Positions 2,694-31,351 of a DNA stretch of 32,000 nt are shown here, in pieces. The stretch is from positions 288,656 to 320,655 of the forward strand of contig NZ_LN852693.1 in NCBI RefSeq assembly GCF_001244545.1, in the 5' to 3' direction. The DNA comes from Candidatus Stoquefichus sp. SB1. GTDB taxonomy: Bacteria > Bacillota_I > Bacilli_A > Erysipelotrichales > Coprobacillaceae. Position 1 is the first letter of the stretch. Each line of letters opens with the position of its first letter. The notes under the pieces were generated by a model. The model made no database searches and had not been told where the DNA came from. It saw nothing but the letters and a program-made list of their open reading frames with translations. Both the position numbers and the translations under genes were made by a program.

Positions 2694-3152
2694 TTATTCA
2701 CTAATAAATTTCACTTCAACCTGATAGTTATCACCAACAAGATTTAAAATTTCTTTTATAATTTTAGATGCGTCTGTCTGTGTTGCATCTTTTTTCATAA
2801 CAGTCACTTTAATTGTTTGATTCTCAATTTCAACATACGCATCCTTATATCCAAGTTCTTTGATTTTTGAAACAATACTCTTCTCTTTTTCACCTATATT
2901 TTTTGTTTCACTAATCGTTTCAAGTGCTTCATTAATAGAATCTGATGTACTTGATTCTTTTGCTATAATCTCATTGTTTTTAGAGATAATATCTTCTCTT
3001 TTCTTATTTAATTGCTCTTGTAATTGCTGAATTGTTGTTTGCGTACTGGTAACGACTTCTTCATTTGAACTTGGTGGCAACATAATATAATAGATTGATA
3101 AGACAAGTATTAAACTGAAAAGTGTTAAAAAAGTAAAAGCTTGTTTATTCAT
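2694..3152 (-). CDS. SpoIIIAH-like membrane protein (single N-terminal TM plus YscJ/FliF-like C-terminal domain)
   Basis: The N-terminus LTLFSLILVLSIYYIMLPPSS closely resembles B. subtilis SpoIIIAH LTMLSLVVVLSVYYIMSPES as I recall it. The C-terminus (KIKELGYKDAYVEIENQTIKVTVMKKDATQTDASKIIKEILNLV...VEVKF) parallels LIKTQGYEDALVNAEGDKINITVKSD...AIIDLVAKEI...VAVTF. AAGGAGA SD. Confidence 0.7.
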   Translation of the reverse strand: MNKQAFTFLTLFSLILVLSIYYIMLPPSSNEEVVTSTQTTIQQLQEQLNKKREDIISKNNEIIAKESSTSDSINEALETISETKNIGEKEKSIVSKIKELGYKDAYVEIENQTIKVTVMKKDATQTDASKIIKEILNLVGDNYQVEVKFISE

Positions 3153-3204
3153 ATTCCATTCTCCTTTTTCTTATATACTATATGTTACAACAAGCTTAAA
3201 TATG

Positions 3205-3224: not shown

Positions 3225-3773
3225 TCCTTGATATTTTCCATCTTCTGTATTCACAATAACTTTTTCTCCTTCATTAATAAATAAAGGAACTTTGATTTGG
3301 TAACCTGTTTCAATAGTTGCATTTTTAGTTGCACCTGTTGCAGTATCACCTTTAACAGCAGGTTCAGTTTCAGTAACTGTAAAAGCCACATTGACAGGTA
3401 ATTGAACACCTAAAACCTCATTTTCAAAACTTGTGACTTCTACCTCATCAGATGGTTTTAAAAAGTTCATTTCCCATTTTAAATGATCAGCAGGAATTTC
3501 AATTTGATCATATGTTTCATTATCCATAAAAACTAACATATCCCCTGAATCATATAAGTATTGCATTTTTCTTTTTTCAATATGTGCTTTGGCAACTTTT
3601 TCACTATTTCCAAAAGTTACTTCAGTTGTAGAACCAGTTCTCATGTTTTTCATTTTCACTCTAATATTAGCAGCAGCACGTGCTGTTTTATTATGTGAAT
3701 ATTCTAAAACAACATATAAATTGCCATCATATTGAAAAGTCATACCTGGTCTTAAATCACCAACATTAATCAT
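3216..3773 (-). CDS. efp: Translation elongation factor P
   Basis: 185 aa; INVGDLRPGMTFQYDGNLYVVLEYSHNKTARAAANIRVKMKNMRTG is the canonical EF-P domain I including the modified-Lys loop region. The track start at 3779 is TTG only 1 nt from the SD. ATG at 3773 lies 7 nt after AAGGAGAG. Confidence 0.93.
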   Translation of the reverse strand: MINVGDLRPGMTFQYDGNLYVVLEYSHNKTARAAANIRVKMKNMRTGSTTEVTFGNSEKVAKAHIEKRKMQYLYDSGDMLVFMDNETYDQIEIPADHLKWEMNFLKPSDEVEVTSFENEVLGVQLPVNVAFTVTETEPAVKGDTATGATKNATIETGYQIKVPLFINEGEKVIVNTEDGKYQGRA

Positions 3774-3806
3774 ATTCAATCTCTCCTTTGTAAGTTTCCC
3801 TACGCA

Positions 3807-3835
3807 TTATAACAAATTTTTTCATATATGTAAAA
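3807..3835 (-). promoter_or_regulatory. Sigma-A type promoter for efp
   Basis: Minus strand: TTTACA - 17 nt - TATAAT, with a TGT extended -10 context, about 30 nt upstream of the efp SD. Confidence 0.6.
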
Positions 3836-3856
3836 TAAATCTATTACTTTTTAGAC

Positions 3857-4009
3857 TCAAAATAAAATGACAAAAATGATATCAACACATAAGAGTATCC
3901 CAATAACAATACTGATTTGTTTTTTTCGTTTATCTGTATCACAAATTTTTTCACGATACACACTAAGTAAAAAACATATCATTAAAATAGCAAATAAAAT
4001 ATATAGCAT
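3857..4009 (-). CDS. Unannotated 50-aa two-TM hairpin membrane protein, last cistron of the comG operon
   Basis: Below the track size cutoff. Hand translation: MLYILFAILMICFLLSVYREKICDTDKRKKQISIVIGILLCVDIIFVILF*. ATG at 4009 lies 2 nt after the comGG stop and is preceded by GGAGGG at ideal spacing. Two hydrophobic helices flank a basic loop. Confidence 0.6.
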   Translation of the reverse strand: MLYILFAILMICFLLSVYREKICDTDKRKKQISIVIGILLCVDIIFVILF

Positions 4010-4011
4010 AT

Positions 4012-4392
4012 TTATCCCTCCACATAGCTAAATTTTGTAACTTCAAACGTATCTGTTCGTATATTTAATATAAATGAATAGTTGATCTTTTCAGATGATA
4101 TATGCGTTGTAATTTCATAATAATCTCCTAAATCCTCAATGAGACTTTGAATTGAATATTCATCATCCATATAATCATCACTTAATAAAATATCATTTTG
4201 CATTTGATCAACATAATATTGAGTCAGTAAAATCTCTAGATTTTTTTGCTTCATGAGAAGTTGAATAGATGTATAGTTTTTGGCATTTTGTCGAATTAGA
4301 AATAATCCTACAGTTAGAGAAAATGTGAATACTAAAAAAGTCACAAGTACAATTTGTAATACGGATCCTTTATTGTTCTGTAATGATTTCAT
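4012..4392 (-). CDS. comGG: Competence minor pseudopilin-like protein ComGG
   Basis: 126 aa with an N-terminal hydrophobic anchor (KGSVLQIVLVTFLVFTFSLTV). Seventh gene of the operon; overlaps comGF by 23 nt. Assigned mainly by position. Confidence 0.6.
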   Translation of the reverse strand: MKSLQNNKGSVLQIVLVTFLVFTFSLTVGLFLIRQNAKNYTSIQLLMKQKNLEILLTQYYVDQMQNDILLSDDYMDDEYSIQSLIEDLGDYYEITTHISSEKINYSFILNIRTDTFEVTKFSYVEG

Positions 4393-4825
4393 CGTCTATC
4401 TCCTGTTTTTCTTTTGCAAAAGTAAGCAAGAACTGATATTCTTTTTCATTGCGAACGACATTCATATAAATCATATCATGCTTCATTTCAAAAGAAAGAT
4501 CATCGATATTGGTTATCATAATCTCAAATCCAGGCGTTTTAACAAGACGATGATTATCTATATCAAATGTCATGATTTCACCGTCATAATTATAAAAACT
4601 GTATTGCTCACCAACGTCTTCATAATTTGTTCCCAACACCTCCTGACTGATTTGTTTTGCAGCTATAAAAATATCTTCATCATATTGTGAAATGTTTTGA
4701 GCATGTGAAATCGTGCGATACATCCCAAACAAACTTGTTACAATAATCAATGAAATTCCAAATGAAAATAAGACTTCAATCAATGTAAAGCCATTTGAAT
4801 TAATTCTGTAAAATCTTCTGAAAAT
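4370..4825 (-). CDS. comGF: Competence minor pseudopilin ComGF (start unresolved: ATT 4825 proposed, track uses TTG 4783)
   Basis: The in-frame sequence just upstream of the track start encodes NSNG-FTLIEVLFSFGISLIIV, the class III prepilin cleavage motif. That frame opens at the TGA at 4832-4834 and has no ATG/GTG/TTG before the motif. ATT at 4823-4825 sits about 7 nt after GAGGGTGA. Confidence 0.6.
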   Translation of the reverse strand: MFRRFYRINSNGFTLIEVLFSFGISLIIVTSLFGMYRTISHAQNISQYDEDIFIAAKQISQEVLGTNYEDVGEQYSFYNYDGEIMTFDIDNHRLVKTPGFEIMITNIDDLSFEMKHDMIYMNVVRNEKEYQFLLTFAKEKQEIDDEIITEQ

Positions 4826-4989
4826 GATATTTCACCCTCTTTCTTTAAAACATCTTGATAATACTGACTGATTTTCGTTTCATTGGAAAAAAGATTCGTC
4901 ATTAAACCCATATAGATTACCAATACAGATATAAAGATTTCAAAAGCAAACAAACTTTCAATCAGTGTCGAGCCTCTTTTACCTAACAT
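4780..4989 (-). CDS. comGE: Competence minor pseudopilin ComGE
   Basis: 69 aa from ATG 4989: MLGKRG-STLIESLFAFEIFISVLVI (prepilin-like leader plus hydrophobic helix). The track's longer N-terminus overlaps comGD and is unlikely. Confidence 0.65.
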   Translation of the reverse strand: MLGKRGSTLIESLFAFEIFISVLVIYMGLMTNLFSNETKISQYYQDVLKKEGEISFSEDFTELIQMALH

Positions 4990-5368
4990 AAAAGCACCCA
5001 CTGCCCACTTGAAAAACAAACTGATATTGTTTTTTAGAAGTATGTAAAACAACCGTCTTAGCACCTTTAATATTCCCTGAAAGATTAAAGGTCATTTCGT
5101 GTGGTTCAAAAAAACTTTGATCATATAATTGATATTCTTTATTAAAATCAACACTGTGGTAAACAATTTCAGAATTTGAAAATGTTAATGTTACTGTCTG
5201 TTTATACGTCATTGCTGTTAATTTTGCTTCATTTAAAAAACCAATGATTTCTTGAACAAGCATACTCTCACTCTTTTGTGGCATATGTAATGTTAAAGAG
5301 AGAGTTGATAAAATGCATATAACAAATAATACAAATAATGTTTCAACTAAAGTAAATCCTTTATTCAT
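4979..5368 (-). CDS. comGD: Competence minor pseudopilin ComGD
   Basis: MNKG-FTLVETLFVLFVICILSTL prepilin signature. ATG 5368 overlaps the comGC stop in an ATGAATAA junction. Confidence 0.75.
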   Translation of the reverse strand: MNKGFTLVETLFVLFVICILSTLSLTLHMPQKSESMLVQEIIGFLNEAKLTAMTYKQTVTLTFSNSEIVYHSVDFNKEYQLYDQSFFEPHEMTFNLSGNIKGAKTVVLHTSKKQYQFVFQVGSGCFYVR

Positions 5369-5666
5369 CAGCATAAGCTTGACCATCGCTTATAGATATT
5401 GATTTTCCATTTGGACATATTCCTTGCTTTTCTGTTAAATAGGGATGACTACCACTTGTTAAATCAGAAATACTTGTTGGTAACTCTCCATTTTCAATTT
5501 CATATAACAAAATCTGAGAATTCACAACTTCAACTTGTGCTTCACAACCTTTGTTTTTAACAACAGTATTTTTAGAAGTAACATTAGGTATAACAAGAAG
5601 CAAAATAACTAATATCACACTAATACAGAAAATCATTTCAATTAAAGTAAATCCTTTTTTGTTCAT
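5361..5666 (-). CDS. comGC: Competence major pseudopilin ComGC
   Basis: 101 aa; MNKKG-FTLIEMIFCISVILVILLLVIP is the canonical type IV prepilin leader/cleavage site with Glu+5. Two Cys in the globular part. AAAGGAAGGA SD. Confidence 0.88.
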   Translation of the reverse strand: MNKKGFTLIEMIFCISVILVILLLVIPNVTSKNTVVKNKGCEAQVEVVNSQILLYEIENGELPTSISDLTSGSHPYLTEKQGICPNGKSISISDGQAYADE

Positions 5667-5682
5667 TTTTATTCCTTCCTTT

Positions 5683-6681
5683 CTAAATATCTGAGATTAC
5701 ATTCATCATTGGAATAATAATCGAAACATAAATCGTAATAACAAAAACTGCTACAAACCCATAAATTGATGGAACAAGATATTTTAAAAATTGGGATATC
5801 CAAAGATCAATCTGTTCATAAGTCAAATCAATATAATGTGCTAAAGATTGCTTTTGAACTGGATTTTTCATATACATTTGAAAAAAGCTTAAAAACAAAC
5901 GATCAAAATACTCAAAATCTTCTAAAATATCTTCTAGTGCTTCACCTTCATGTAATCTGTTATTCATTTCATAAAGCACAATTTTTAAATCACTTTCTGT
6001 CATTTGTTCATTCAAAAGTGCAATAATACTTGTACTATCAATTTCTTCATTAAGAAGTTCATGATAATAAACAGCAAATTTAAGAGAAAAATATTTTTGC
6101 AAACAAATTTTAAAGACTGGTAATTTCAAATACCACTCAATAATTAAATAAGATTTATGACGTAGTGCAAAAAATAGTCGAATAAGTAAAAACACAATAA
6201 GACTCCCAATAGAAATAATTAAAATTGGCATAAAATAGAAAAAGAAAAACATAATTTGAATCATAAGACTCTTTTGAATTTGAAAAGAATCAAATAGCTG
6301 ATTGACATTTGGTAATAAAATAAATACAACAAAAATAGAAAAAAGAAGCAAAAAAGTCATTAAAATAAGAGGATAAGTTAATTTTGATTTTAATTGATTT
6401 TGATACTCTTCTTTCATCATACAAATATCTAAACTCTTTTGAATAGCTTCAGATAAACAATTCTTATTTTTAAAAAAATAAAAGTATTCTAAAAATAATT
6501 TTGGAAAATCCCCACTTATAATAACCGTTTCTAAAGATTCACCATAATGTAACTGATCAATCATTTTTGTTATTATAGGATGATGCATGATATGCTGACA
6601 AATATGTAATGTTTCTTCAATACTATAACCTGCCTCCAATAAAGTATATAGATTTTTTAAAAGCAGATAATCTTTATTCAT
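5683..6681 (-). CDS. comGB: Competence pseudopilus platform protein ComGB (GspF/PilC family)
   Basis: Polytopic membrane protein with duplicated GspF-like cytoplasmic domains. Start set at ATG 6681 (MNKDYLLLKNLY), which overlaps the comGA stop by 8 nt; the track start 6714 would overlap by 41 nt. Confidence 0.85.
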   Translation of the reverse strand: MNKDYLLLKNLYTLLEAGYSIEETLHICQHIMHHPIITKMIDQLHYGESLETVIISGDFPKLFLEYFYFFKNKNCLSEAIQKSLDICMMKEEYQNQLKSKLTYPLILMTFLLLFSIFVVFILLPNVNQLFDSFQIQKSLMIQIMFFFFYFMPILIISIGSLIVFLLIRLFFALRHKSYLIIEWYLKLPVFKICLQKYFSLKFAVYYHELLNEEIDSTSIIALLNEQMTESDLKIVLYEMNNRLHEGEALEDILEDFEYFDRLFLSFFQMYMKNPVQKQSLAHYIDLTYEQIDLWISQFLKYLVPSIYGFVAVFVITIYVSIIIPMMNVISDI

Positions 6682-7660
6682 ATTGATATTCTCCTGTAAA
6701 TAACTCTCTATCAAAACCTTGATTTATTAATTTTTGAGCTTGCTTTGCAAACGTTGAATAATTTGTTTCGTGATTTTGAAAGTAAGAGAAAATCTCTTCT
6801 TTATTCATATACTCTGATAAAACAATAACTCTTTGATTCTTTGAATCATATTTCATCCTTTGCGACATTGCACCTATAACAACATCACAGATATCTATTT
6901 CATTTACTTCTAGATTCATTAAACGTTTTAATGATAATAATGCATTGCTTGCATGAATAGTTGTTAAAACTAAATGCCCTGTCAAAGCACATGTAATCGC
7001 AATTTTAGCTGTTGTCACATCACGTATTTCACCAATCATAATAATATCTGGATCATGCCTTAATATCTGCTTTAAAGTATCCTGATAAGTAATTCCTAAC
7101 TTTTCATTTAGTTCAATTTGTAAACAGTTCTCTAATTGCATTTCAATAGGATCTTCAATTGTAATAACATTCTTATTATCATGACGAATAATTTCTTTAA
7201 GAACAGTATATAAGGTCGTGGATTTCCCTGATCCCGTTGCTCCACTAATTAAAAATAAGCCACTTTCCTGTTTTGTTAACCACATTAAATAATGAATAAT
7301 ATCATCTTGGTAAGAAAGTTGTTCAATTGTACCAATCTCATGATTGTTAAGAATCCTAATGACAATACTTTCAAAATTTTGTGATGGCAGATAAGAAATT
7401 CTCAAGAAATACTCTTTTTGATGTATAGTTGTTGAAAAATCACCAGTTTGAGGAAGAAGTCGATAATTTGTATTGATGAGCGCTCTATATTTAATATAAT
7501 TCATCAATTTACTTCCTAAATCATTTTCTAAACAATCATAATTTTTTAATTTCCCAAACAACCGAAAACGAATATAAAGACAATCTTTTAAAACCATATG
7601 TATATCTGTAGCTTTCATTTTCAAAGCCCGATACATCACCTTATCAAATAGTTCATCCAT
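6674..7660 (-). CDS. comGA: Competence pseudopilus assembly ATPase ComGA (GspE/PilB family)
   Basis: 328 aa with Walker A GATGSGKST, an Asp box (ITIEDPIE), Walker B (DPDIIMIGEIRD) and a His box (TGHLVLTTIHA). GGAGGG SD. Confidence 0.92.
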   Translation of the reverse strand: MDELFDKVMYRALKMKATDIHMVLKDCLYIRFRLFGKLKNYDCLENDLGSKLMNYIKYRALINTNYRLLPQTGDFSTTIHQKEYFLRISYLPSQNFESIVIRILNNHEIGTIEQLSYQDDIIHYLMWLTKQESGLFLISGATGSGKSTTLYTVLKEIIRHDNKNVITIEDPIEMQLENCLQIELNEKLGITYQDTLKQILRHDPDIIMIGEIRDVTTAKIAITCALTGHLVLTTIHASNALLSLKRLMNLEVNEIDICDVVIGAMSQRMKYDSKNQRVIVLSEYMNKEEIFSYFQNHETNYSTFAKQAQKLINQGFDRELFTGEYQYE

Positions 7661-12917: not shown

Positions 12918-13250
12918 TTATCTATTCATTAGATATTTATCTACGAACTCAACGTGTTCGACTTTCACTTCCATCACAGTGGTTGTCTGATGATCTGATG
13001 ATTCAAAAGTTTTTGATTGTAACCGTCCTTTTATTCCTATATAGCTTCCAATCTCACAACAATCCATCACTGTTTGGCTAATTCCTTTCCATAATACACA
13101 ACTGATATAATCATGATCTTTAATTCCCAGATTATTTCGATAAGGTCTTTCAACATCCAAAACCATTGTTGCAAGTTTTACACCGTTGCTTGTTTCTTTT
13201 AAAACTGGTTCATTTGCTAACTTCCCAATAACAATTATTTCATTAAACAT
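12918..13250 (-). CDS. Single-stranded DNA-binding protein, short form lacking the acidic C-terminal tail (SsbB-like)
   Basis: 110 aa. OB-fold pattern matches SSB (MFNEIIVIGKLANEPVLKETSNGVKLATMVLDVERPYRN...DYISCVLWKG...GSYIGIKGRLQSKTFE...EVKVEHVEF). Ends right after the OB fold with no Gly/Gln-rich linker or DDDLPF-type tip. AAAGGAGG SD. Confidence 0.75.
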   Translation of the reverse strand: MFNEIIVIGKLANEPVLKETSNGVKLATMVLDVERPYRNNLGIKDHDYISCVLWKGISQTVMDCCEIGSYIGIKGRLQSKTFESSDHQTTTVMEVKVEHVEFVDKYLMNR

Positions 13251-23407: not shown

Positions 23408-24868
23408 CTATTTTTCATCATAATATTTATCAAATTCATCATAATCAATATCTTCATCATACTTAGGATCATAATCATAGTCATAATCATCATCAAATTC
23501 TTCACTATCATCTTCTTCTAAGTCTGTGACAAATGTTTCTTCTTCATCATCTGCGACAAAAGTTTCCTCTTCATCAATTGATTCAGAAACTTCATCTTCA
23601 TCCATTGAATCATCTTCTTCAATCATTTCCTCAAATTCTTCAACTGGCTCTTCAGTTAATTCTGGTTCAGAAATGATATCTTCAAATGTTTCTTCCTCAT
23701 CTGCTTCTTCAATAATTGGCTCAGATGAAACAGTTTTCACTAATGTTTCTACAATTGGTTCATCTTTTGTCATTTCAGTTTCAAATGATTTTTCAAATTC
23801 AGCATCTTGACCATAAATAATACCTTCAGCAGCTGCTTCACTCACAGATTTAATATCAATTTTCCAACCAGTTAAACGTACTGCTAATCTTGCATTTTGT
23901 CCTTTTTTTCCAATTGCTAGAGATAATTGATTATCTGGTACAATCACAAGTGCACTATGATCTTCTTCACAAATCTCAACATGTACCACTTCTGAAGGTG
24001 ATAATGCATGAGAAATAAAGATAACTGGATCTTCATTCCATTCAATAATATCGATCATTTCACCATTAAGTTCATTGACAACATTGCGTACACGACTTCC
24101 TTTAGGACCAACACAAGATCCAATAGGATCGACATTATCATTTGTTGTATACACAGCAATTTTGCTACGATCTCCTGCTTCACGCGAAACAGATTTAATT
24201 TCAACTGTTCCATCATAAATTTCAGGCACTTCCATTTCAAACAATCTTTTGACAAGACCTGGTTCTGTTCTTGACACACCAATATGTGTTCCTTTAGTGC
24301 TTCTTTCAACATCACTGACATAAACCTTTATATGCTGACCTTCATAAATTTTTTCACCTGGAATCTGTTGATTTAAAGGCAACAATGCACCTGTTCTGCC
24401 AATATTTATAATTGCGAAACGTTCTTCTACACGATCAACAACACCTGTAATAATATCATCTTTTTTATCAATATATTCATTATATAAAGTTTCTTTCTCA
24501 GCTTCACGAATCTTTTGTTTTAATAACTGTTTTGTTTGAATTGCAGCCAAACGACCAAAAACCTCAGGATCAATTTCAGTGACAACATCATCTCCTACTT
24601 GATATTTAGGATTAATGACTTGTGCTTCTTCTAAAGATAATTCGAAATCTTCATCATTGACATCATCAACAACATGTTTGATTTCATATAAACGAATTTT
24701 ACCAGTATTCTCATTAATATCAACACGAATAATTGATTCAGAACCACCATAATTCTTTTTATACGATTTTTCTAAAGCCTCTTTTAAAGCTTCTAAAACA
24801 ACTTCCTTTTGAATCCCTTTTTCACTCTCCAATAGCTCTAAAGCCTGGATAAATTTTTTACTAGCCAT
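23408..24868 (-). CDS. nusA: Transcription termination/antitermination factor NusA with a ~130-aa hyperacidic C-terminal extension
   Basis: The N-terminal domain, S1 (GVVDRVEERFAIINIG) and KH1/KH2 (GPKGSRVRNV, AIGKKGQNARLA) are intact. After about residue 355 the sequence is almost pure D/E/Y low complexity. AAGGAGG SD. Confidence 0.95.
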   Translation of the reverse strand: MASKKFIQALELLESEKGIQKEVVLEALKEALEKSYKKNYGGSESIIRVDINENTGKIRLYEIKHVVDDVNDEDFELSLEEAQVINPKYQVGDDVVTEIDPEVFGRLAAIQTKQLLKQKIREAEKETLYNEYIDKKDDIITGVVDRVEERFAIINIGRTGALLPLNQQIPGEKIYEGQHIKVYVSDVERSTKGTHIGVSRTEPGLVKRLFEMEVPEIYDGTVEIKSVSREAGDRSKIAVYTTNDNVDPIGSCVGPKGSRVRNVVNELNGEMIDIIEWNEDPVIFISHALSPSEVVHVEICEEDHSALVIVPDNQLSLAIGKKGQNARLAVRLTGWKIDIKSVSEAAAEGIIYGQDAEFEKSFETEMTKDEPIVETLVKTVSSEPIIEEADEEETFEDIISEPELTEEPVEEFEEMIEEDDSMDEDEVSESIDEEETFVADDEEETFVTDLEEDDSEEFDDDYDYDYDPKYDEDIDYDEFDKYYDEK

Positions 24869-24883
24869 TTTTTATTTTCCTCC

Positions 24884-25345
24884 TTAAAACTTAACAGCTA
24901 ATCTTATAAAAGCAATATCTTGATATTGCAAAGTACAAGTCTTCTTAATATTTTTCACTAAATATTGAAACTCAATTGTTTCATTATCAACACTTAAAAT
25001 AGTTCCATAAACATCATCCATTCCCTGGGTTGGTTTTTTAAACTGGATATAGACATATTCACCAACTGACTGTTGTACTTTTTCTAATGTTTTTAATGGC
25101 TTTTCAGCACCTGGAGATGAGATTTCCAAATAATATTCATTGGTAATGATATCAGCTTCATCAAGCTTTTCGCTAATCTCCTCACTTACAGCAACACAAG
25201 TATCCATATCTAAGTGATCATTATTTTTTTCAATGAATATTCTTAGATACCACTCATTTTTTTCATTCACATATTCAATATCATCAAGATAGACATCATG
25301 ATTATCAAGAATAGGTTGAATTAATTTTTTAATTGTCTCTAGCAT
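24884..25345 (-). CDS. rimP: Ribosome maturation factor RimP
   Basis: 153 aa; YLEISSPGAEKPLK is the RimP signature. First gene of the nusA-infB operon. GGAGGA SD. Confidence 0.9.
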   Translation of the reverse strand: MLETIKKLIQPILDNHDVYLDDIEYVNEKNEWYLRIFIEKNNDHLDMDTCVAVSEEISEKLDEADIITNEYYLEISSPGAEKPLKTLEKVQQSVGEYVYIQFKKPTQGMDDVYGTILSVDNETIEFQYLVKNIKKTCTLQYQDIAFIRLAVKF

Positions 25346-25360
25346 ATAATCCTCCGTTTA

Positions 25361-25391
25361 CAAATATAAACGAGAGGGTTGCCCCTCTCGT
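25361..25391 (-). terminator. GC-rich leader hairpin about 25 nt upstream of rimP (ancestral polC terminator and/or attenuator of the nusA operon)
   Basis: Minus strand: ACGAGAGGG-GCAA-CCCTCTCGT, a perfect 9-bp stem and the most GC-rich element in the window. It is followed by an interrupted U-tract TTATATTTGT, then the rimP SD. Confidence 0.6.
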
Positions 25392-25400
25392 AAATCACTG

Positions 25401-25428
25401 ATTACATGTATAATATAACATAGTTCAA
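25401..25428 (-). promoter_or_regulatory. Weak candidate promoter for the rimP-nusA-infB operon
   Basis: Minus strand: TTGAAC - 16 nt - TGTAAT, between the polC-end relic and the leader hairpin. Mediocre match in AT-rich DNA. Confidence 0.25.
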
Positions 25429-25451
25429 TACAAAAAACAATGCTTTCATCA

Positions 25452-25525
25452 ATATTTTCCTACAAATCAAATAAAGACAGCTGATTTTCATCAGACATAT
25501 TCTCAAAGACACCGATTTTTGTTAA
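25452..25525 (-). repeat. Direct repeat copy A: relic copy of the polC 3' end (last 21 codons, stop and 8 nt)
   Basis: 72/74 identical to 27027..27100. It would encode LTKIGVFENMSDENQLSLFDL*, but an in-frame TAA lies two codons upstream and there is no SD. The only in-codon difference (25514 G vs 27089 A) is a synonymous Ile change. Confidence 0.9.
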
Positions 25526-25628
25526 ATTTTATCCATTAAAAAGTTTTTTATAAATAAACAATCATGAAATCTTTATAACTCTTTGCACTTCTTTCACTAT
25601 AATTGAAAGCACCCTTATATCCAATTAA

Positions 25629-26309
25629 TTAATGAAATAAGTTTTCAAATTGATTAAAATTCATTTCATTTGAAAAATCATTTATGCGACCATATTCAGA
25701 CCTAATGATAATATTTTTAGAATTGACCTTATATTCTTTTTCAATTGTTCCATCCGTATTCATAAGCTGAGACTCTAATTTTAACTCATTATTTGTTATA
25801 GAAACCATGAAAGGATAAACAGCACCATAATAATTATGTTGAGTGGGTTCATTATTTAAGAATAAAATATATTCTTTATTTAAATCAGGTTCAATATAGG
25901 TTTGATCCAATGCAATAACTTTTGGTGTGTTTTTATTAATATCAGCCATGTCAGGAATATCATTATGAGCTGTATAATAAATTGTTTCACTATACCTTTG
26001 ATTAACCTGAATATTTGATACATTTTTAGCAAGCCCTTTATAGATATGAGTGATTTCAAAATTGTAAACACGTCCTATTGTCTCATATATATCACTTGGG
26101 TTGTCATCAATATCTCTTGCCATATTCCATTCATGGCTAAATTTAGTAAAATGACCTTTAACAACAACCTCACTTTGAGTAATTAAATCAGTATATGAAT
26201 TAGCAATAGGTAAATCAAATTTACTAACGATAACTTGTGGCTTATATAATAAATATATGGCAAAACATAAGACAAATAATATTGGAATAAAATATTTTAA
26301 TTTTTTCAT
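25629..26309 (-). CDS. Hypothetical membrane-anchored or secreted protein (cassette cargo)
   Basis: 226 aa. N-terminal signal-anchor MKKLKYFIPILFVLCFAIYLLY, then an Asn/Tyr-rich extracytoplasmic region in which I recognise no motif. AGGTGA SD. 8 nt downstream of the metzincin reading frame. Confidence 0.6.
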   Translation of the reverse strand: MKKLKYFIPILFVLCFAIYLLYKPQVIVSKFDLPIANSYTDLITQSEVVVKGHFTKFSHEWNMARDIDDNPSDIYETIGRVYNFEITHIYKGLAKNVSNIQVNQRYSETIYYTAHNDIPDMADINKNTPKVIALDQTYIEPDLNKEYILFLNNEPTQHNYYGAVYPFMVSITNNELKLESQLMNTDGTIEKEYKVNSKNIIIRSEYGRINDFSNEMNFNQFENLFH

Positions 26310-26317
26310 ACTCTCAC

Positions 26318-26842
26318 CTACTTATATAAAGATTTTACTCGACTAATATCGATACTTTGTGGTGTGTATAGACTGCCTCTATTTCTATTACCATTCATAA
26401 TTGAAGTCCCCGAAGTCAAATCGTCCAATCCCCATGAATGACCCAATTCATGAGTAGCCGTACTTCTTGCCACATTTGTTGAATAAACTTTGCTATTACC
26501 AATATTCACTCTTGCTAAATATGATGTCATAGTTTCCCATATGTTGACTGGATAATTAATTTAACCGTATAAAGTTGAACTTGTTTCTTTCATAAGTCCT
26601 TGTTTATAATTACTGTCAGACATATAGTAATATGTAACACCCACCAAAGATGTCCATGAGCTTCTTGCTTGATTCCACGCTGTCTGTAAACTATTATCCA
26701 TACTCATAGAAGAATCCCAACGATAAGAAGTTGCAAATGCAGGTAATTTTTGTCCTAATTCCCAATCAGCAGCAACAATAGAAATATTAAACAAACATAA
26801 AGTAAATATAATTATAAAGAGTTTTAACTTTTTAAATTTCAT
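26318..26842 (-). pseudogene. Small secreted metzincin zinc metalloprotease (HExxHxxGxxD, snapalysin/matrixin-like) interrupted by one in-frame TAA
   Basis: Track ORFs 26561..26884 and 26318..26530 are in the same frame, separated only by TAA at 26561-26563 (...SSTLYG*INYPVNIWETMTSYLARV...). The upstream part has signal peptide MKFKKLKLFIIIFTLCLFNISIVAA from ATG 26842 (AAAGGAG SD). The downstream part has THELGHSWGLDD (26420-26452) plus a Met-turn candidate TSIMNG. Confidence 0.7.
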
Positions 26843-26882
26843 ATAACTCCTTTCCAAACCCCTTATATCTCTTTCTAATTTC

Positions 26883-26891
26883 ATTATATCA
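26883..26891 (-). promoter_or_regulatory. Extended -10 promoter (TGATATAAT) for the cassette genes
   Basis: Minus strand TGATATAAT lies about 40 nt upstream of ATG 26842. No clear -35 in an A/T-rich upstream tract. Confidence 0.4.
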
Positions 26892-26990
26892 TTATTTTAA
26901 TAAAAATTATGGAATTCATATAGAATTTTACATATTTTTATCATTTTATATGACAATCATCAATTGAATAAATACTCAAAGTTGTATTTT

Positions 26991-27026
26991 AAAACGTATA
27001 AATCTATGACAAGATTTATACGTTTT
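26991..27026 (-). terminator. 15-bp perfect inverted repeat with 6-nt spacer, abutting repeat copy B (new polC terminator and/or recombination core site)
   Basis: AAAACGTATAAATCT (26991-27005) - ATGACA - AGATTTATACGTTTT (27012-27026). Begins 8 nt after the polC stop and ends exactly where the 74-bp repeat starts. A/T runs on both sides. Confidence 0.6.
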
Positions 27027-27100
27027 ATATTTTTCTACAAATCAAATAAAGACAGCTGATTTTCATCAGACATATTCTCAAAGACACCAATTTTTGTTAA
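27027..27100 (-). repeat. Direct repeat copy B: functional polC 3' end
   Basis: See copy A. Covers 8 nt downstream of the stop, the TAG stop (27035-27037) and the last 21 polC codons. Confidence 0.9.
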
Positions 27101-30100
27101 GAAGTCAATTTGGTTATTCGTCAGTTTTGTCCTTTTTGTGACATCTTCTTTAGATAAGAAAGAATTGTGTTTACGGGCTTCAATCACACTATCACCTACT
27201 GAAGCACCCAAACCATCTATAGAAGTAAATGGTGGCAATAAACCTTGAGGATCATCTGGATCTAATATAAAATTACGTGAATCAGATTTCTCTAAAGAAA
27301 TATTATTAAAATGAATATCTCTTTCATACATTTCTAAAGCAATTTCAAAAACAGAAATCAATGCTTCTTCCTTATTAGAAATTTTTACACCATTTTGTTT
27401 ATCAGATAAAATCTGTTGATATCTTGCCAGAATAGATTCTTTACCTTGAATCATAATTTCAATATCATATGCATCACAGCGTGTTGTAAAATAGACTGCA
27501 TAATATTCTCGAGGATAATAAAGTTTCCACCATGCCACACGAATGGCACTCAATACATAAGCAGCCGCATGTGCTTTAGGGAACATGTATTTAATTTTCT
27601 TACATGATTCAATATACCAAGAAGGAACATCATGCTCACGCATTAATTCTTCATATTTCTTTTCTGGGAATACAGCAGGTGACTTCCCTTTACGTACACA
27701 TTCCATAATATCAAAGGCATCTTTATTAGGCAATCCTTTTTCAATTAGATAAACCATGATATCATCACGACATCCAATAACCTCTTTTAATGTACATGTT
27801 CCAGAACTAATTAAGGTTTCAGCATTTCCTAAATAAACATCTGTTCCGTGTGATAAACCAGAAAGAATAACCAAATCGCTAAATGATGTTGGATGTGTTT
27901 GTTCAAGCATTCCGCGGACAAACTTTGTACCAAATTCGGGTAATCCTAAAGCCCCTGTTTTACAGTTCAAATAACTTAAATCTATACCTAATGCCTCAGT
28001 TGAATTAAAAAGACTCATAACACGAGGATCATTAGTTGGAATATCTTTTGGATTCACACCAGTTAAATCCTGAAGCATCCTAATCACAGTTGGATCAACA
28101 TGACCCAATATATCAAATTTCAAGACATTATCATGAATCGCATGGAAATCAAAATGAGTGGTTTTCCATTCAGCGCTTAAATCATCAGCTGGATATTGAT
28201 AAGGTGTAAAATCATAGACATCCATATTTTCCGGAATAACAATAATTCCTCCTGGATGCTGACCAGTCGTTCTTTTCACACCTGTACATCCTTTAGCAAT
28301 TCTTTCAAGTTCAGCTGCTCGAATAGTATTTTCTTTTCCCATTAATTCAGCATATCCCTTGGCATATCCATACGCTGTCTTTTCTGCTACAGTTGAAATT
28401 GTTCCAGCTCGATAGACATGGCTTTCTCCAAAAATCTCTTTTGTATAAGCATGTGCTGTTGGCTGATAATCCCCAGAGAAATTTAAGTCAATATCAGGAA
28501 CCTTATCTGCATTAAATCCCAAGAAAGTTTCAAATGGAATATTATGTCCATCTCCTTTTAATGGTTTTCCACAGACAGGACAAACTTTATCTGGTAAATC
28601 AAATCCATTCGCAATATATCCTTCTGGTAAAAACTCATTGTACTGACAATGCGGACAATAATAATGTGGAGGCAATGGATTCACTTCAGATATGTCAGCC
28701 ATTGTTGCAACAAACGAAGAACCAACTGAACCACGGCTTCCTACAAGATAACCAGCATCATTTGATTTTTTAACCAATTTATGAGCAATATAATAAATAA
28801 CGCCAAATCCATGTTTGATAATATTATCTAATTCCTTTGACAGACGCTTTTCAACAATATCAGGTAAAACCTCCCCATATTGTTTATGAGCATTTTCAAA
28901 ACACAATTTTCTTAAATTTTCATCTGCATTATCAATATGTGGCGTAAATAATTTATCATGAACAACATGAAAATCACCATCAATCATATCAGCAATCTTA
29001 TTGGTATTTTCTATAACATATTCATATTTTTCATTATCATTTAAATAGTCAAGAGAATCCATCATTTCTTGGGTTGTTCGAAGGTATTCATCTGGCGTCC
29101 AAGCCATAGGATTATTACGATCAGTCAAAGGATGTAATGTTCCTCCCAGCCCTATTTTTGGGTTACATGTGAATACATCACGGAAAATTTTATCTTTTTG
29201 ATCAACATAATGAACATCACCTGTCGCAACAATCAATTTTCCCATTTCTTTAGCTGTATCAACAATACGACGTAATATACGCTTTAAATCATCTTCTGTA
29301 TCAACACGTCCTCTTTCTACAAAATAACGGCAGATATCAAATGGTAAGATTTCAATATAATCATAAAATGCCATAGCCGCTTTTAATTCATCAATACTTC
29401 TTGTCATAGCCAATTCAAAAATTTCTGAATTGTAACATCCACTTCCAAACAATAAACCTTCACGATAAAATTCTAAGCGTTCACGTGGTATACGTGATGT
29501 TTTTTGATAATATGTTGTATTGGCTTCAGAAACGAGCTTAAACATATTCTTTAAACCTGTTTTATTTTTGGCAAGTACACACATATGTTTTGGTCTAACA
29601 ATCTTATATGCGTCTTCACATTCCATTGCATTCATATCTAAAAGATTGTATTTTTGGTTTTGCATCATATCATGTAACATCATGTTAAAAACACCTGCAA
29701 GAACTTCGGCATCATAATCAGCACGATGGGCCTCATCACCATCATAAGCAATACGATAATTACGGGCAACATTTCCTAAACGATATCCTTTAAGTTGTGG
29801 TAATAGTTTCCATGCTAATGTCAAGGAATCGACAGCTGGGTTTTTTAATTTTTGATAGCCATGTCGCTGTAAAATTTCATTTAAAAATCCAACATCAAAA
29901 GTTGCATTATGGGCAACAATAACATCATCACCAAAGAAATCTAAGATTTTTGGAATGAATTCTTCTATTGTTGGTGCATTTTTTACATCTTCATTTGTGA
30001 TATGTGTTAAATTCGTGATTTTTTGTGAGATGCGCTTATTCGGTTTAATTAAGCTTTGAATACGACCAATCTCTTGACCATTTTTAATACGTACTGCACC

Positions 30101-31351
30101 AAATTCAGTAATATCATCATCCATTACAGAAAGTCCTGTTGTTTCAAGGTCAAAAGAAACAAATGTCATGTCCTTTAAAGAAACATCTTTCTCATTATAA
30201 ACAACTGTAAATGATGGATCAATCATATACATTTCTACACCATAAATCATCTTAATCTTATTTTTGATACTTGCCATCTGGGCCTCAGGAAACGACTGAA
30301 CATTTCCATGATCTGTTACAGCAATAGCAGAATGTCCCCAAAAAGCAGCACGTGATATGTAATCGCTAATTGTTCCTATACCATCCATGGCAGACATTTT
30401 AGAGTGAACATGAAGTTCAACACGTTTTTTATCTGCATTGTCTTGTCTCACTTTAGGGGTAGGAATAATTTCTACTTCTCTTGCAATAATAACGGTATCT
30501 TTAGCAAAGGTATCATATTCAACATTGCCTTTAATTCTAACCCACATTCCACCTTTTTTAACTTTATTTAATTCTTCAAGGCTATTAGCTCCTTTATTTT
30601 CAAAACGTTTAACCACAATACTATTAGTATAATCAGTCACATACAATGATTGAATTGTCTTGCCTGTCTTTACTTTTTTAGAATCTTCTTTAAACACATA
30701 TCCTTGGATCATAACTTCTTTCACTGTTTCATCAATTTCATCAATAGTTAAAGAAAAATAATCTTTTTTATAACTTTGATATTTAGGCTTTTTGTCAACC
30801 ACAGTTTCCTCTACCTGATCAAAAGTCTGACTATCAACTTGAACCTCGTTTAAAGCATTCATTTCCTCTTGAATTGACTGATAAATCTCATTGTTATGAT
30901 CAATATAAGCATTGAAACCAATTTGAATACCAAACTTATTAAAATATTTATCAAATATTTTATAAAGATGCTGTAATTGACTTAATTGTATCTCATTAAG
31001 AACTTCAATATTTAAAGTATTCTCTTCAAAAGATAAACTTTCTTCTTTAATAAACTCAAGTTGAGGAAAACGACTTTTTAAACCATTAAAAATAAACAAT
31101 GCATATTCTTTTACATCTGTTGGTGTATAAGATGACATCCAGTCAAAAATAAAATCACATGGATATGGAAATTCTTTTTTAGCTGAAAAAAGAACCCTTA
31201 TTTCATTTAAAGGAACAATATGTGATGCAACAACATAAAACACATATGAATTATCTGCATTCACAATAACTTTTTCAATATTGGCCTGTTTTAATTCAAC
31301 AACTTCATCTTCTAAATGCAGTTGCTGAAGCAAAATTAACATTTTATTCAT
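27035..31351 (-). CDS. polC: DNA polymerase III, PolC-type (alpha subunit with intrinsic 3'-5' exonuclease)
   Basis: 1438 aa with an OB domain, a PHP domain (HVHSKMSAMDG), a DEDDh exonuclease insert (FVSFDLETTGL...HRADYDA), a Zn-finger (CPHC...CPVC), the polymerase core and a C-terminal QLSLFDL. GGGAGGA SD. Confidence 0.97.
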   Translation of the reverse strand: MNKMLILLQQLHLEDEVVELKQANIEKVIVNADNSYVFYVVASHIVPLNEIRVLFSAKKEFPYPCDFIFDWMSSYTPTDVKEYALFIFNGLKSRFPQLEFIKEESLSFEENTLNIEVLNEIQLSQLQHLYKIFDKYFNKFGIQIGFNAYIDHNNEIYQSIQEEMNALNEVQVDSQTFDQVEETVVDKKPKYQSYKKDYFSLTIDEIDETVKEVMIQGYVFKEDSKKVKTGKTIQSLYVTDYTNSIVVKRFENKGANSLEELNKVKKGGMWVRIKGNVEYDTFAKDTVIIAREVEIIPTPKVRQDNADKKRVELHVHSKMSAMDGIGTISDYISRAAFWGHSAIAVTDHGNVQSFPEAQMASIKNKIKMIYGVEMYMIDPSFTVVYNEKDVSLKDMTFVSFDLETTGLSVMDDDITEFGAVRIKNGQEIGRIQSLIKPNKRISQKITNLTHITNEDVKNAPTIEEFIPKILDFFGDDVIVAHNATFDVGFLNEILQRHGYQKLKNPAVDSLTLAWKLLPQLKGYRLGNVARNYRIAYDGDEAHRADYDAEVLAGVFNMMLHDMMQNQKYNLLDMNAMECEDAYKIVRPKHMCVLAKNKTGLKNMFKLVSEANTTYYQKTSRIPRERLEFYREGLLFGSGCYNSEIFELAMTRSIDELKAAMAFYDYIEILPFDICRYFVERGRVDTEDDLKRILRRIVDTAKEMGKLIVATGDVHYVDQKDKIFRDVFTCNPKIGLGGTLHPLTDRNNPMAWTPDEYLRTTQEMMDSLDYLNDNEKYEYVIENTNKIADMIDGDFHVVHDKLFTPHIDNADENLRKLCFENAHKQYGEVLPDIVEKRLSKELDNIIKHGFGVIYYIAHKLVKKSNDAGYLVGSRGSVGSSFVATMADISEVNPLPPHYYCPHCQYNEFLPEGYIANGFDLPDKVCPVCGKPLKGDGHNIPFETFLGFNADKVPDIDLNFSGDYQPTAHAYTKEIFGESHVYRAGTISTVAEKTAYGYAKGYAELMGKENTIRAAELERIAKGCTGVKRTTGQHPGGIIVIPENMDVYDFTPYQYPADDLSAEWKTTHFDFHAIHDNVLKFDILGHVDPTVIRMLQDLTGVNPKDIPTNDPRVMSLFNSTEALGIDLSYLNCKTGALGLPEFGTKFVRGMLEQTHPTSFSDLVILSGLSHGTDVYLGNAETLISSGTCTLKEVIGCRDDIMVYLIEKGLPNKDAFDIMECVRKGKSPAVFPEKKYEELMREHDVPSWYIESCKKIKYMFPKAHAAAYVLSAIRVAWWKLYYPREYYAVYFTTRCDAYDIEIMIQGKESILARYQQILSDKQNGVKISNKEEALISVFEIALEMYERDIHFNNISLEKSDSRNFILDPDDPQGLLPPFTSIDGLGASVGDSVIEARKHNSFLSKEDVTKRTKLTNNQIDFLTKIGVFENMSDENQLSLFDL

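Follow-up and report, generated by a model that had tools for sequence, protein, structure and literature searches.

A recombinase-less two-gene cassette bracketed by a duplicated polC 3′ end in Candidatus Stoquefichus sp. SB1

The polC-rimP locus and its duplicated gene end

The window analysed here is a 32-kb stretch of contig NZ_LN852693.1 from Candidatus Stoquefichus sp. SB1 (positions 288,656 to 320,655). It contains a small cassette inserted between polC, which encodes a PolC-type DNA polymerase III alpha, and rimP, with one copy of the polC 3′ end on either side of it (Table 1). The two copies match at 72 of 74 positions and form the sole long high-identity direct repeat in the window. 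Read on the minus strand, the repeat unit runs TTA ACA AAA ATT GGT ... TTT GAT TTG TAG and continues into AAAAATAT. In copy B the last 21 codons encode LTKIGVFENMSDENQLSLFDL and complete the 1438-residue polymerase, whose C-terminal end reads ...TKIGVFENMSDENQLSLFDL. Copy A, separated from copy B by exactly 1,501 bp, lies downstream and has no reading frame of its own. The two differences between the copies are an ATT/ATC change in an isoleucine codon, which is synonymous, and the first base after TAG. A note made earlier from the letters alone (the sequence-only reading) had described this anatomy, with copy B as the true polC end, copy A as an untranslated relic, and a PolC C terminus kept intact by the duplication. 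The open reading frames and the repeat sequence bear it out in each respect, copy B supplying the clamp-binding tail.

The edges of the repeat are sharp. In-register identity outside it is at the level of chance (6/34 just upstream and 14/52 downstream), and this comparison found no eroded homology past the repeat edges. The repeat itself includes a 5-4-5 inverted repeat, CTGAT-GAAA-ATCAG, at a place where the sequence is, however, constrained by its coding function.

Table 1. Features of the polC-rimP region, in window coordinates
Feature	Coordinates	Strand	Description
rimP	24884..25345	-	153 aa; first gene of the rimP-nusA-ylxR-L7Ae-infB-rbfA operon
Original polC-rimP spacer	25346..25451	-	Remains of the native weak polC terminator (TGATGAAAGCATTGTTTTTT), rimP promoter region, G+C-rich leader hairpin with U-run (25370-25391), the hairpin conserved in all relatives
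Repeat copy A	25452..25525	-	Untranslated polC-end relic; non-synonymous changes accumulate in other strains
Cargo gene 2	25629..26309	-	226 aa, N-terminal membrane helix, no Pfam or NCBIfam family; conserved protease partner
Cargo gene 1	26318..26842	-	Putative small zinc metalloprotease of matrixin type, secreted, 174 aa, with the motif HELGHSWGLDD; pseudogene here, Gln94->TAA at 26561-26563
TGATATAAT extended -10-like match	26883..26891	-	Upstream of the cargo operon; consensus match only
Perfect 16-6-16 palindrome	26990..27027 (arms 26990-27005 / 27012-27027)		Abuts copy B at the polC-proximal cassette end; terminator-like on the + strand
Repeat copy B	27027..27100	-	Functional polC end: 21 codons + TAG + 8 nt
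polC	27035..31351	-	1438 aa, PolC-type DNA polymerase III alpha, clamp-binding tail ...ENQLSLFDL; open reading frame and translation; Pfam PHP, RNase_T, DNA_pol3_alpha, HHH_6 on identical products

The non-coding DNA of the cassette amounts to 184 and 103 nt, and because this and the two cargo genes together fill the 1,501 bp, there is no room for integrase remnants. The palindrome at the polC-proximal end forms a strong hairpin (-17.9 kcal/mol, z = -5.1) and possibly serves the cassette as a replacement terminator or as an operator. The sequence-only reading had recognised it, as a 15-6-15 structure; the arms are one base longer when the base shared with the repeat is counted. The same reading had credited the cassette with its own extended -10 promoter. 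The match to TGATATAAT is present, but it is a match to a consensus only, the window holding two sequences of this type against 1.6 expected. The identical nonamer also occurs upstream of the cargo of a second cassette, from a Longibaculum species, described below.

The cassette encodes a protease pseudogene and a partner gene, and domain annotation finds no integrase, relaxase or transposase domain in it, in agreement with the earlier description of it as recombinase-less. Both genes counted in that description are present; one is a pseudogene in the window, through an in-frame TAA. The protease carries a predicted signal peptide and the metzincin motif given in Table 1, which is of the HEXXHXXGXXH/D type. 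Its matches to Pfam M10 score 19.9-20.1 bits, under the 24-bit cutoff, and a match to M12 also falls just under threshold. A homolog 58% identical to it, encoded on metagenomic contig L021, reaches 25.6 bits against M10, above the cutoff, and a Bacillus homolog (32% identity) is named "matrixin family metalloprotease" by RefSeq. The Gln94->TAA change is found in the window strain and in L005, L006, L011 and L012, with the protease intact in L001 and L002; the protease is therefore undergoing loss in part of the species.

The protease-partner pair also occurs on megaplasmids of Bacillus mycoides and B. toyonensis, with the protease at 32% and 30% identity. In the Bacillus mycoides plasmid NZ_CP128141.1 (L153) the pair lies at 3432-4756 next to an S8 peptidase gene, on one of the megaplasmids of the Bacillus cereus group. 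In contig L021, where the two proteins are 58% and 47% identical to those of the window, the pair stands beside a DDE transposase of the insertion sequence (IS) type. There a 3.55-kb segment after thiD, bracketed by an imperfect direct repeat of ~33 nt (3126-3158 and 6680-6712), holds both the transposase and the pair.

The partner protein is represented in ~156 representative clusters overall, and its close relatives come almost all from SB1 itself. PADLOC returned no defence-system match for any cargo. One AlphaFold model of the partner reached a moderate predicted local distance difference test score (pLDDT) of 71; a second, at pLDDT 43, was unusable. For the first model the best solved structures in Foldseek are TIMP-2 in complexes with matrix metalloproteinases, together with NTR domains, a weak match (E = 6e-3, probability 1.0, TM 0.35/0.43). 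TIMP inhibitors have an NTR fold of the OB type and an N-terminal cysteine that chelates the zinc of the protease through its amino group; the partner protein has no conserved cysteine at its N terminus. The model thus offers a weak hint, to be taken as a lead only, of a bacterial protease and TIMP-like inhibitor pair, an arrangement that would make functional sense for a protease partner.

A fixed insertion at a recurrent site

Contigs from MEGAHIT (k119), from SPAdes and from an NCBI metagenome-assembled genome (MAG) each span both repeat copies, the k of 119 exceeding the repeat length, and in conspecific contigs each copy bears private single-nucleotide polymorphisms (SNPs). These three independent assemblies lead us to reject misassembly, an objection that the sequence-only reading had raised against itself. 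The RimP of the window is identical to the SB1 protein, and every conspecific contig examined for this RimP has the cassette or ends within the repeat; the two diagnostic differences between copies A and B are fixed across these contigs. The private SNPs of the relic change codons (GAT GAA to GAT AAA; TCT to CCT), as dead sequence would lead one to expect. Within the species, divergence is 1.2-1.7% in the cassette compared with 0.4-0.7% in the flanking polC and rimP-nusA. The cassette is a real, old and fixed insertion scar in Candidatus Stoquefichus sp. SB1, and the conspecific contigs give no sign of present-day mobility.

We compared the locus with 101 further polC-rimP junctions, ~45 of them from the same family-level clade. 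The empty state, in which polC and rimP lie 100-130 nt apart, is the default arrangement and occurs in at least 10 related species, among them those with the most similar PolC (90-92% identity over the C-terminal 250 aa). Because polC is followed directly by rimP in these species, the cassette is an insertion; the empty single-copy sites are those that an insertion at the polC 3′ end, as proposed from the sequence, had led one to expect. The SB1 sequence after the relic aligns base for base with the empty spacers of relatives, so the recipient lost no DNA.

Other occupants of this spacer show that it is a general insertion hotspot. In relatives, three inserts stand directly after the polC stop without any duplication: 6.4 kb in L029, comprising a nucleobase permease gene and one for a 1323-aa surface protein; 4 kb in L121, with a surface protein gene alone; and 1.3 kb in L025, with a lipoprotein gene on the opposite strand. 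The surface proteins (L029 10619-14590; L121 3279-7025) are 1250-1320 aa long, with long "DTNKDGKPDINI" repeat runs, and neither of these inserts is flanked by repeats. Larger inserts after polC in Bacillus swezeyi, Lysinibacillus and a Bacillales MAG hold cellulase or prkA-type genes and show no repeats; we set them aside as parallels. No integrase was found in any of these spacer inserts, whether the duplication-free ones or the larger ones of Bacillus relatives.

The polC end, which the sequence-only reading had proposed as an integration site, is a recurrent site of insertion. At the same position, a Longibaculum species whose RimP is 87% identical to that of SB1 has a cassette of one gene, unrelated to the SB1 cassette, and again a duplication of almost the same extent. 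Its cargo gene, of 246-248 codons and with no family match, is preceded by a canonical hairpin-plus-U7 terminator. In L013 the two copies of the polC end share 96% identity over 77 nt, and in L014 they match at 100% over 68 nt; the overall length is ~77-81 nt. Relative to the polC stop its limits, placed by eye, are about -64/-60 and +16, compared with -65 and +8 in SB1, so that the two duplications start 1-5 nt apart. Between the two cassettes we found no DNA similarity and no common short motifs or end motifs beyond chance. Within the Longibaculum cargo itself (L013 5038-5784; L014 5044-5784) the first ~110 codons are strongly diverged between strains and the rest is nearly identical, which gives the gene a mosaic appearance. 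An "IEHEN" motif in the product is reminiscent of a nuclease motif; WYL regulators precede the homologs of the gene, and PADLOC gives no credible match. The cargo may be a defence or toxin-like module.

In a PolC tree SB1, Longibaculum and two empty-site species form one clade with 94% bootstrap support, within which SB1 groups with the empty species L111/L113 (76%) and Longibaculum with the empty L115 (51%); the four species are nearly equidistant in DNA. Between species the repeat region diverges by 13-15%, compared with 14-17% for the rest of polC, and divergence between the two copies of a single genome is 0-4%. The duplicated sequence is therefore each host lineage's own, and a foreign origin of the repeat region is rejected. 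The Longibaculum copies have exchanged sequence with one another, both reading GATGAT in L013 and both GATAAT in L014-L016, so that copy-to-copy identity is not a safe clock.

A third case lies at a different gene. Where the Longibaculum cargo has homologs (35-52% identity), a WYL-domain gene usually precedes them, and in L146 (5512-7983) a WYL gene and a 44%-identical homolog make up a cassette of 1.8 kb at the 3′ end of a gene for a GH1 glycosidase. The GH1 end is duplicated: the real end spans ~376 nt and the relic ~298 nt, with a 78-nt slip deletion and divergent final codons. Because of this case, the architecture of gene end, cassette and relic reaches beyond polC, and its repeat length is not fixed. 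Further homologs in L150-L152 sit beside WYL and DUF4116 genes without gene-end duplications and were discarded as additional cases.

Origin of the cassette

The sequence-only reading had likened the two repeats to attL and attR sites, around either a non-autonomous element resembling a cis-mobilizable element (CIME) or the remnant of a larger island, and had suggested a search for integrase-bearing elements sharing the 74-bp repeat. Neither such an element nor a circular form turned up in the 101 junctions or in collections of viruses, phages and plasmids. There is no integrase-bearing element at the site among the 101 junctions, a sample of MAG contigs in which such an absence is not proof. 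Two patterns for polC-end-like sequence, exact or degenerate, found nothing in IMG/VR. The repeat-plus-cassette DNA has no match in phage and plasmid collections, and the cargo proteins have none in IMG/VR, plasmids or phages except the distant Bacillus plasmid homologs of the cargo pair. The att interpretation has thus gained no direct support, the two cassettes having no end motifs in common either.

The reading that we favour, tentatively and ahead of a CIME-like remnant, is that, in the SB1 lineage, a compact operon of foreign origin entered the polC-rimP spacer through recombination on homology to the polC 3′ end, with no recombinase supplied by the cassette. The captured operon would comprise the hairpin, the promoter-like site, the mini-matrixin protease gene and the partner gene. 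The incoming DNA would have borne the polC end, from about -65 to +8 of the stop, followed directly by the cargo. It could have entered by a single (Campbell-type) crossover of a ~1.6-kb circular molecule, or by a homologous crossover inside polC together with an illegitimate join at -65. In the product, the resident polC would be fused to the incoming terminal 74 nt, now copy B, and would keep its QLSLF clamp-binding tail; downstream of the cargo, the resident's own last 74 nt would persist as the dead relic, copy A, followed by the untouched rimP promoter and leader. We infer that the DNA would have been taken up by transformation.

Several observations are consistent with this homology-driven capture. 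No recombinase is needed for it, and compact cassettes without an integrase therefore fit. The repeats vary in length (74, ~80 and ~300-376 nt), as insertion by homology would allow more readily than a target-site duplication or a fixed att site. The duplication-free inserts directly after the polC stop in L029, L121 and L025 have the configuration that a donor would need, and the GATGAT/GATAAT exchange in Longibaculum shows that homologous exchange between copies does occur. In Bacillus subtilis, homologous recombination is reported to become detectable from ~70 bp upward (Khasanov 1992, as cited in PMC4381049). The repeat has what a homology-anchored insertion-duplication should have: it is homologous to the host, variable in length and near the threshold, in an organism for which DNA uptake is plausible. 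That threshold, near which 74 and ~77-81 nt both lie, could explain the similar limits of two independent events. The window holds a complete-looking comG competence-pilus operon (4012-7660, minus strand), with genes for the ComGA ATPase, the ComGB platform protein, several N-methyl pilins and ComGF, and a gene for a short single-stranded DNA-binding protein (SSB) of 110 aa (12918-13250), an SsbB-like length. Together these genes suggest that the organism may plausibly take up DNA.

Some points weigh against capture by homology. The duplications of SB1 and Longibaculum start 1-5 nt apart despite unrelated cargos, a coincidence of ~5% for random illegitimate joins, and only an argument from stability or minimum homology would explain the shared start. 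No donor was found with the protease cargo directly after polC without a duplication, donor-type layouts being seen only for other cargos (L029, L121). Competence is read from genes only, as a predicted capacity. In addition, the locus bears the classical signature of site-specific integration, the end of a housekeeping gene being restored by a clean duplication.

That signature leads to the CIME-like remnant, which we regard as possible though somewhat less probable than homology capture. Here a tyrosine-integrase element, whether an integrative and conjugative element (ICE), an integrative and mobilizable element (IME) or a prophage, would have used the polC 3′ end as attB, its attP carrying a gene-end mimic of ~75-80 nt. 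Integrase and transfer genes would since have been lost, leaving copy B as attL and copy A as attR, and the remnant could still move, either with the help of an integrase provided in trans or after accretion with an incoming element. In Bacillota, elements of this class integrate at the 3′ ends of housekeeping genes and bring a copy of the targeted end with them, so that one repeat holds that end and the gene is undisrupted, a textbook anatomy that the locus reproduces (PMC5704250). The 74-nt repeat and the identity of copy B with the polC end match a CIME in structure only, and do not imply that the repeats act as att sites. Streptococci often carry att-flanked elements of 1.2-13 kb that lack a recombinase, and CIMEs, some with no more than 1.2 kb of cargo, are more numerous than intact elements (PMC7563491). 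The sharp repeat boundaries in SB1 also suit this origin, as do two unrelated cargos at one site in two close species with near-identical repeat limits, and the placement of both occupied species inside the 94%-supported clade. Several MAG contigs stop right after polC or before rimP, where large elements could hide. On the other side stand the failed searches set out above, which leave no att sites shared with an integrase-bearing ICE or IME at the same target. The cassette ends of the two species also have no motif beyond chance and hence no common arm sites. The repeats, at 74-81 nt, are somewhat longer than the 8-60 bp usual for the identity segment that holds the crossover core of such elements (PMC5704250), and a duplication of ~300-376 nt, as at GH1, would be unusual in an att site. 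Neither cassette has room for decay debris. The sequence-only reading did not know polC as a described integration hotspot, and we found no literature report of polC as an integration or att site.

A single ancestral duplication in the four-species clade would account for the common left boundary. In that case gene conversion would have kept the relic similar, the cargo would have been swapped, and two lineages would have lost everything by deletion between the repeats. Gene conversion between the copies is indeed seen in Longibaculum, in both species the copies differ close to the edges of the repeat, cargo turnover is plausible in a hotspot spacer, and the four species are almost equidistant. 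This history nevertheless calls for one gain, a cargo swap and two precise losses where two gains would do, and in the PolC tree occupied species are intermingled with empty ones. The right-hand limits are not the same (+8 compared with +16), the SB1 repeat edges are perfectly conserved with no eroded homology beyond them, and a count of two fixed differences over 74 nt is in keeping with an insertion that predates the strain diversity of the species by only a little. We therefore consider it improbable. Transposition with a long target-site duplication, and an assembly artefact, are less probable by far, and both are refuted as far as sequence data reach. Direct repeats do flank the insert and a homolog of the cargo pair does adjoin an IS-type DDE transposase in L021, but the cassette has neither terminal inverted repeats nor a transposase, and its 74-nt duplication is far beyond known target duplications, the repeats made by DDE transposases being 8 bp (PMC5704250). 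As to an artefact, the ends of a 1,605-nt Logan contig, L012, overlap by 30 nt, which could be taken for a circle; we reject this, the overlap being the k-1 of a k = 31 graph passing through the repeat, and the assemblies that span both copies, with their private SNPs, speak against an artefact in general.

The probability not taken up by homology capture, the CIME-like remnant and the ancestral duplication belongs to other or unknown causes. More speculatively, and with only a small chance of being right, the polC 3′ end may be the target of an undescribed cassette-capture system in Coprobacillaceae, dealing in small, promoter-bearing, recombinase-less cassettes. Behind it would stand either an unlinked integrase that works in trans or a general route of gene-end duplication, independent of any recombinase, that also operates at other genes, such as GH1. 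Such a system, if real, would be a chromosomal cassette platform without an adjacent integrase.

Relation to known systems and further observations

Prophage 21 and e14 in the icd gene of Escherichia coli also supply an alternative gene 3′ end and leave the displaced native end in place. These elements differ from the polC cassette in having their own integrase and many kilobases of DNA; the latter has no integrase and 1.5 kb. The minimal mobile elements of Neisseria are differing small cassettes between the same conserved genes that spread by transformation and flanking homology with no recombinase, but unlike the polC cassette they do not duplicate the end of a flanking gene. Homology-facilitated illegitimate recombination and insertion-duplication after natural transformation were reportedly described by de Vries and Wackernagel (2002) and by Prudhomme et al. 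(2002). In events of that kind, including Campbell-type ones, one stretch of homology suffices, the homologous segment comes to lie on both sides of the foreign DNA, and no dedicated recombinase takes part. The polC cassette resembles them in these respects, in the presence of competence genes in its host and in repeats of 74-81 nt, near the ~70-bp threshold. It differs in that they are mostly laboratory observations, and the donor molecule for the SB1 cassette was not found. We know of no described case of a natural, fixed insertion-duplication of an essential-gene end, twice at one site. The nearest counterparts among remnants of site-specific elements are the CIMEs and decayed ICEs and IMEs at fda, rpsI, rpmG, rplL and tRNA-Lys in streptococci, which the polC cassette resembles in size, within the 1.2-13 kb range, and in accessory or adaptive cargo (PMC5704250, PMC7563491). 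In contrast to these, no cognate integrase element is known, or was found, for polC, the repeat is longer than 8-60 bp, conserved arm-like sequences and tandem accretion were not seen, and polC is not a reported target.

The polC cassette is thus a new site for a known kind of scar. With it, the end of an essential replicase gene joins the places where gut Bacillota gather accessory genes, and it is a clean natural example of an insertion tolerated only by rebuilding the clamp-binding C terminus. The two polC cassettes and the GH1 case, all of them recombinase-less, make it testable whether att-like scars in MAG-rich clades are the products of integrases or by-products of transformation and RecA, a distinction that matters for the annotation of recombinase-less islets. 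A secondary lead comes from the cargo, in which a mini-matrixin protease and its partner form a conserved pair and modelling suggests for the partner a possible TIMP-like fold.

The remaining observations concern the flanks of the insertion. The G+C-rich hairpin and U-run of the native spacer (minus strand) lie just upstream of the rimP ribosome-binding site and are kept across the clade; this conserved element probably serves the rimP-nusA operon as a terminator or attenuator in its leader. Rfam gave no match anywhere in the region, leader hairpin included. In one relative, L124 (1-10500), no polC lies within 10 kb upstream of rimP, which indicates either a rearrangement or a very large insertion at the junction. 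Farther into the operon, the acidic C-terminal tail of NusA (window 23503-23722) is encoded by 27-nt imperfect tandem repeats, and the length of NusA ranges from 463 to 486 aa among relatives.

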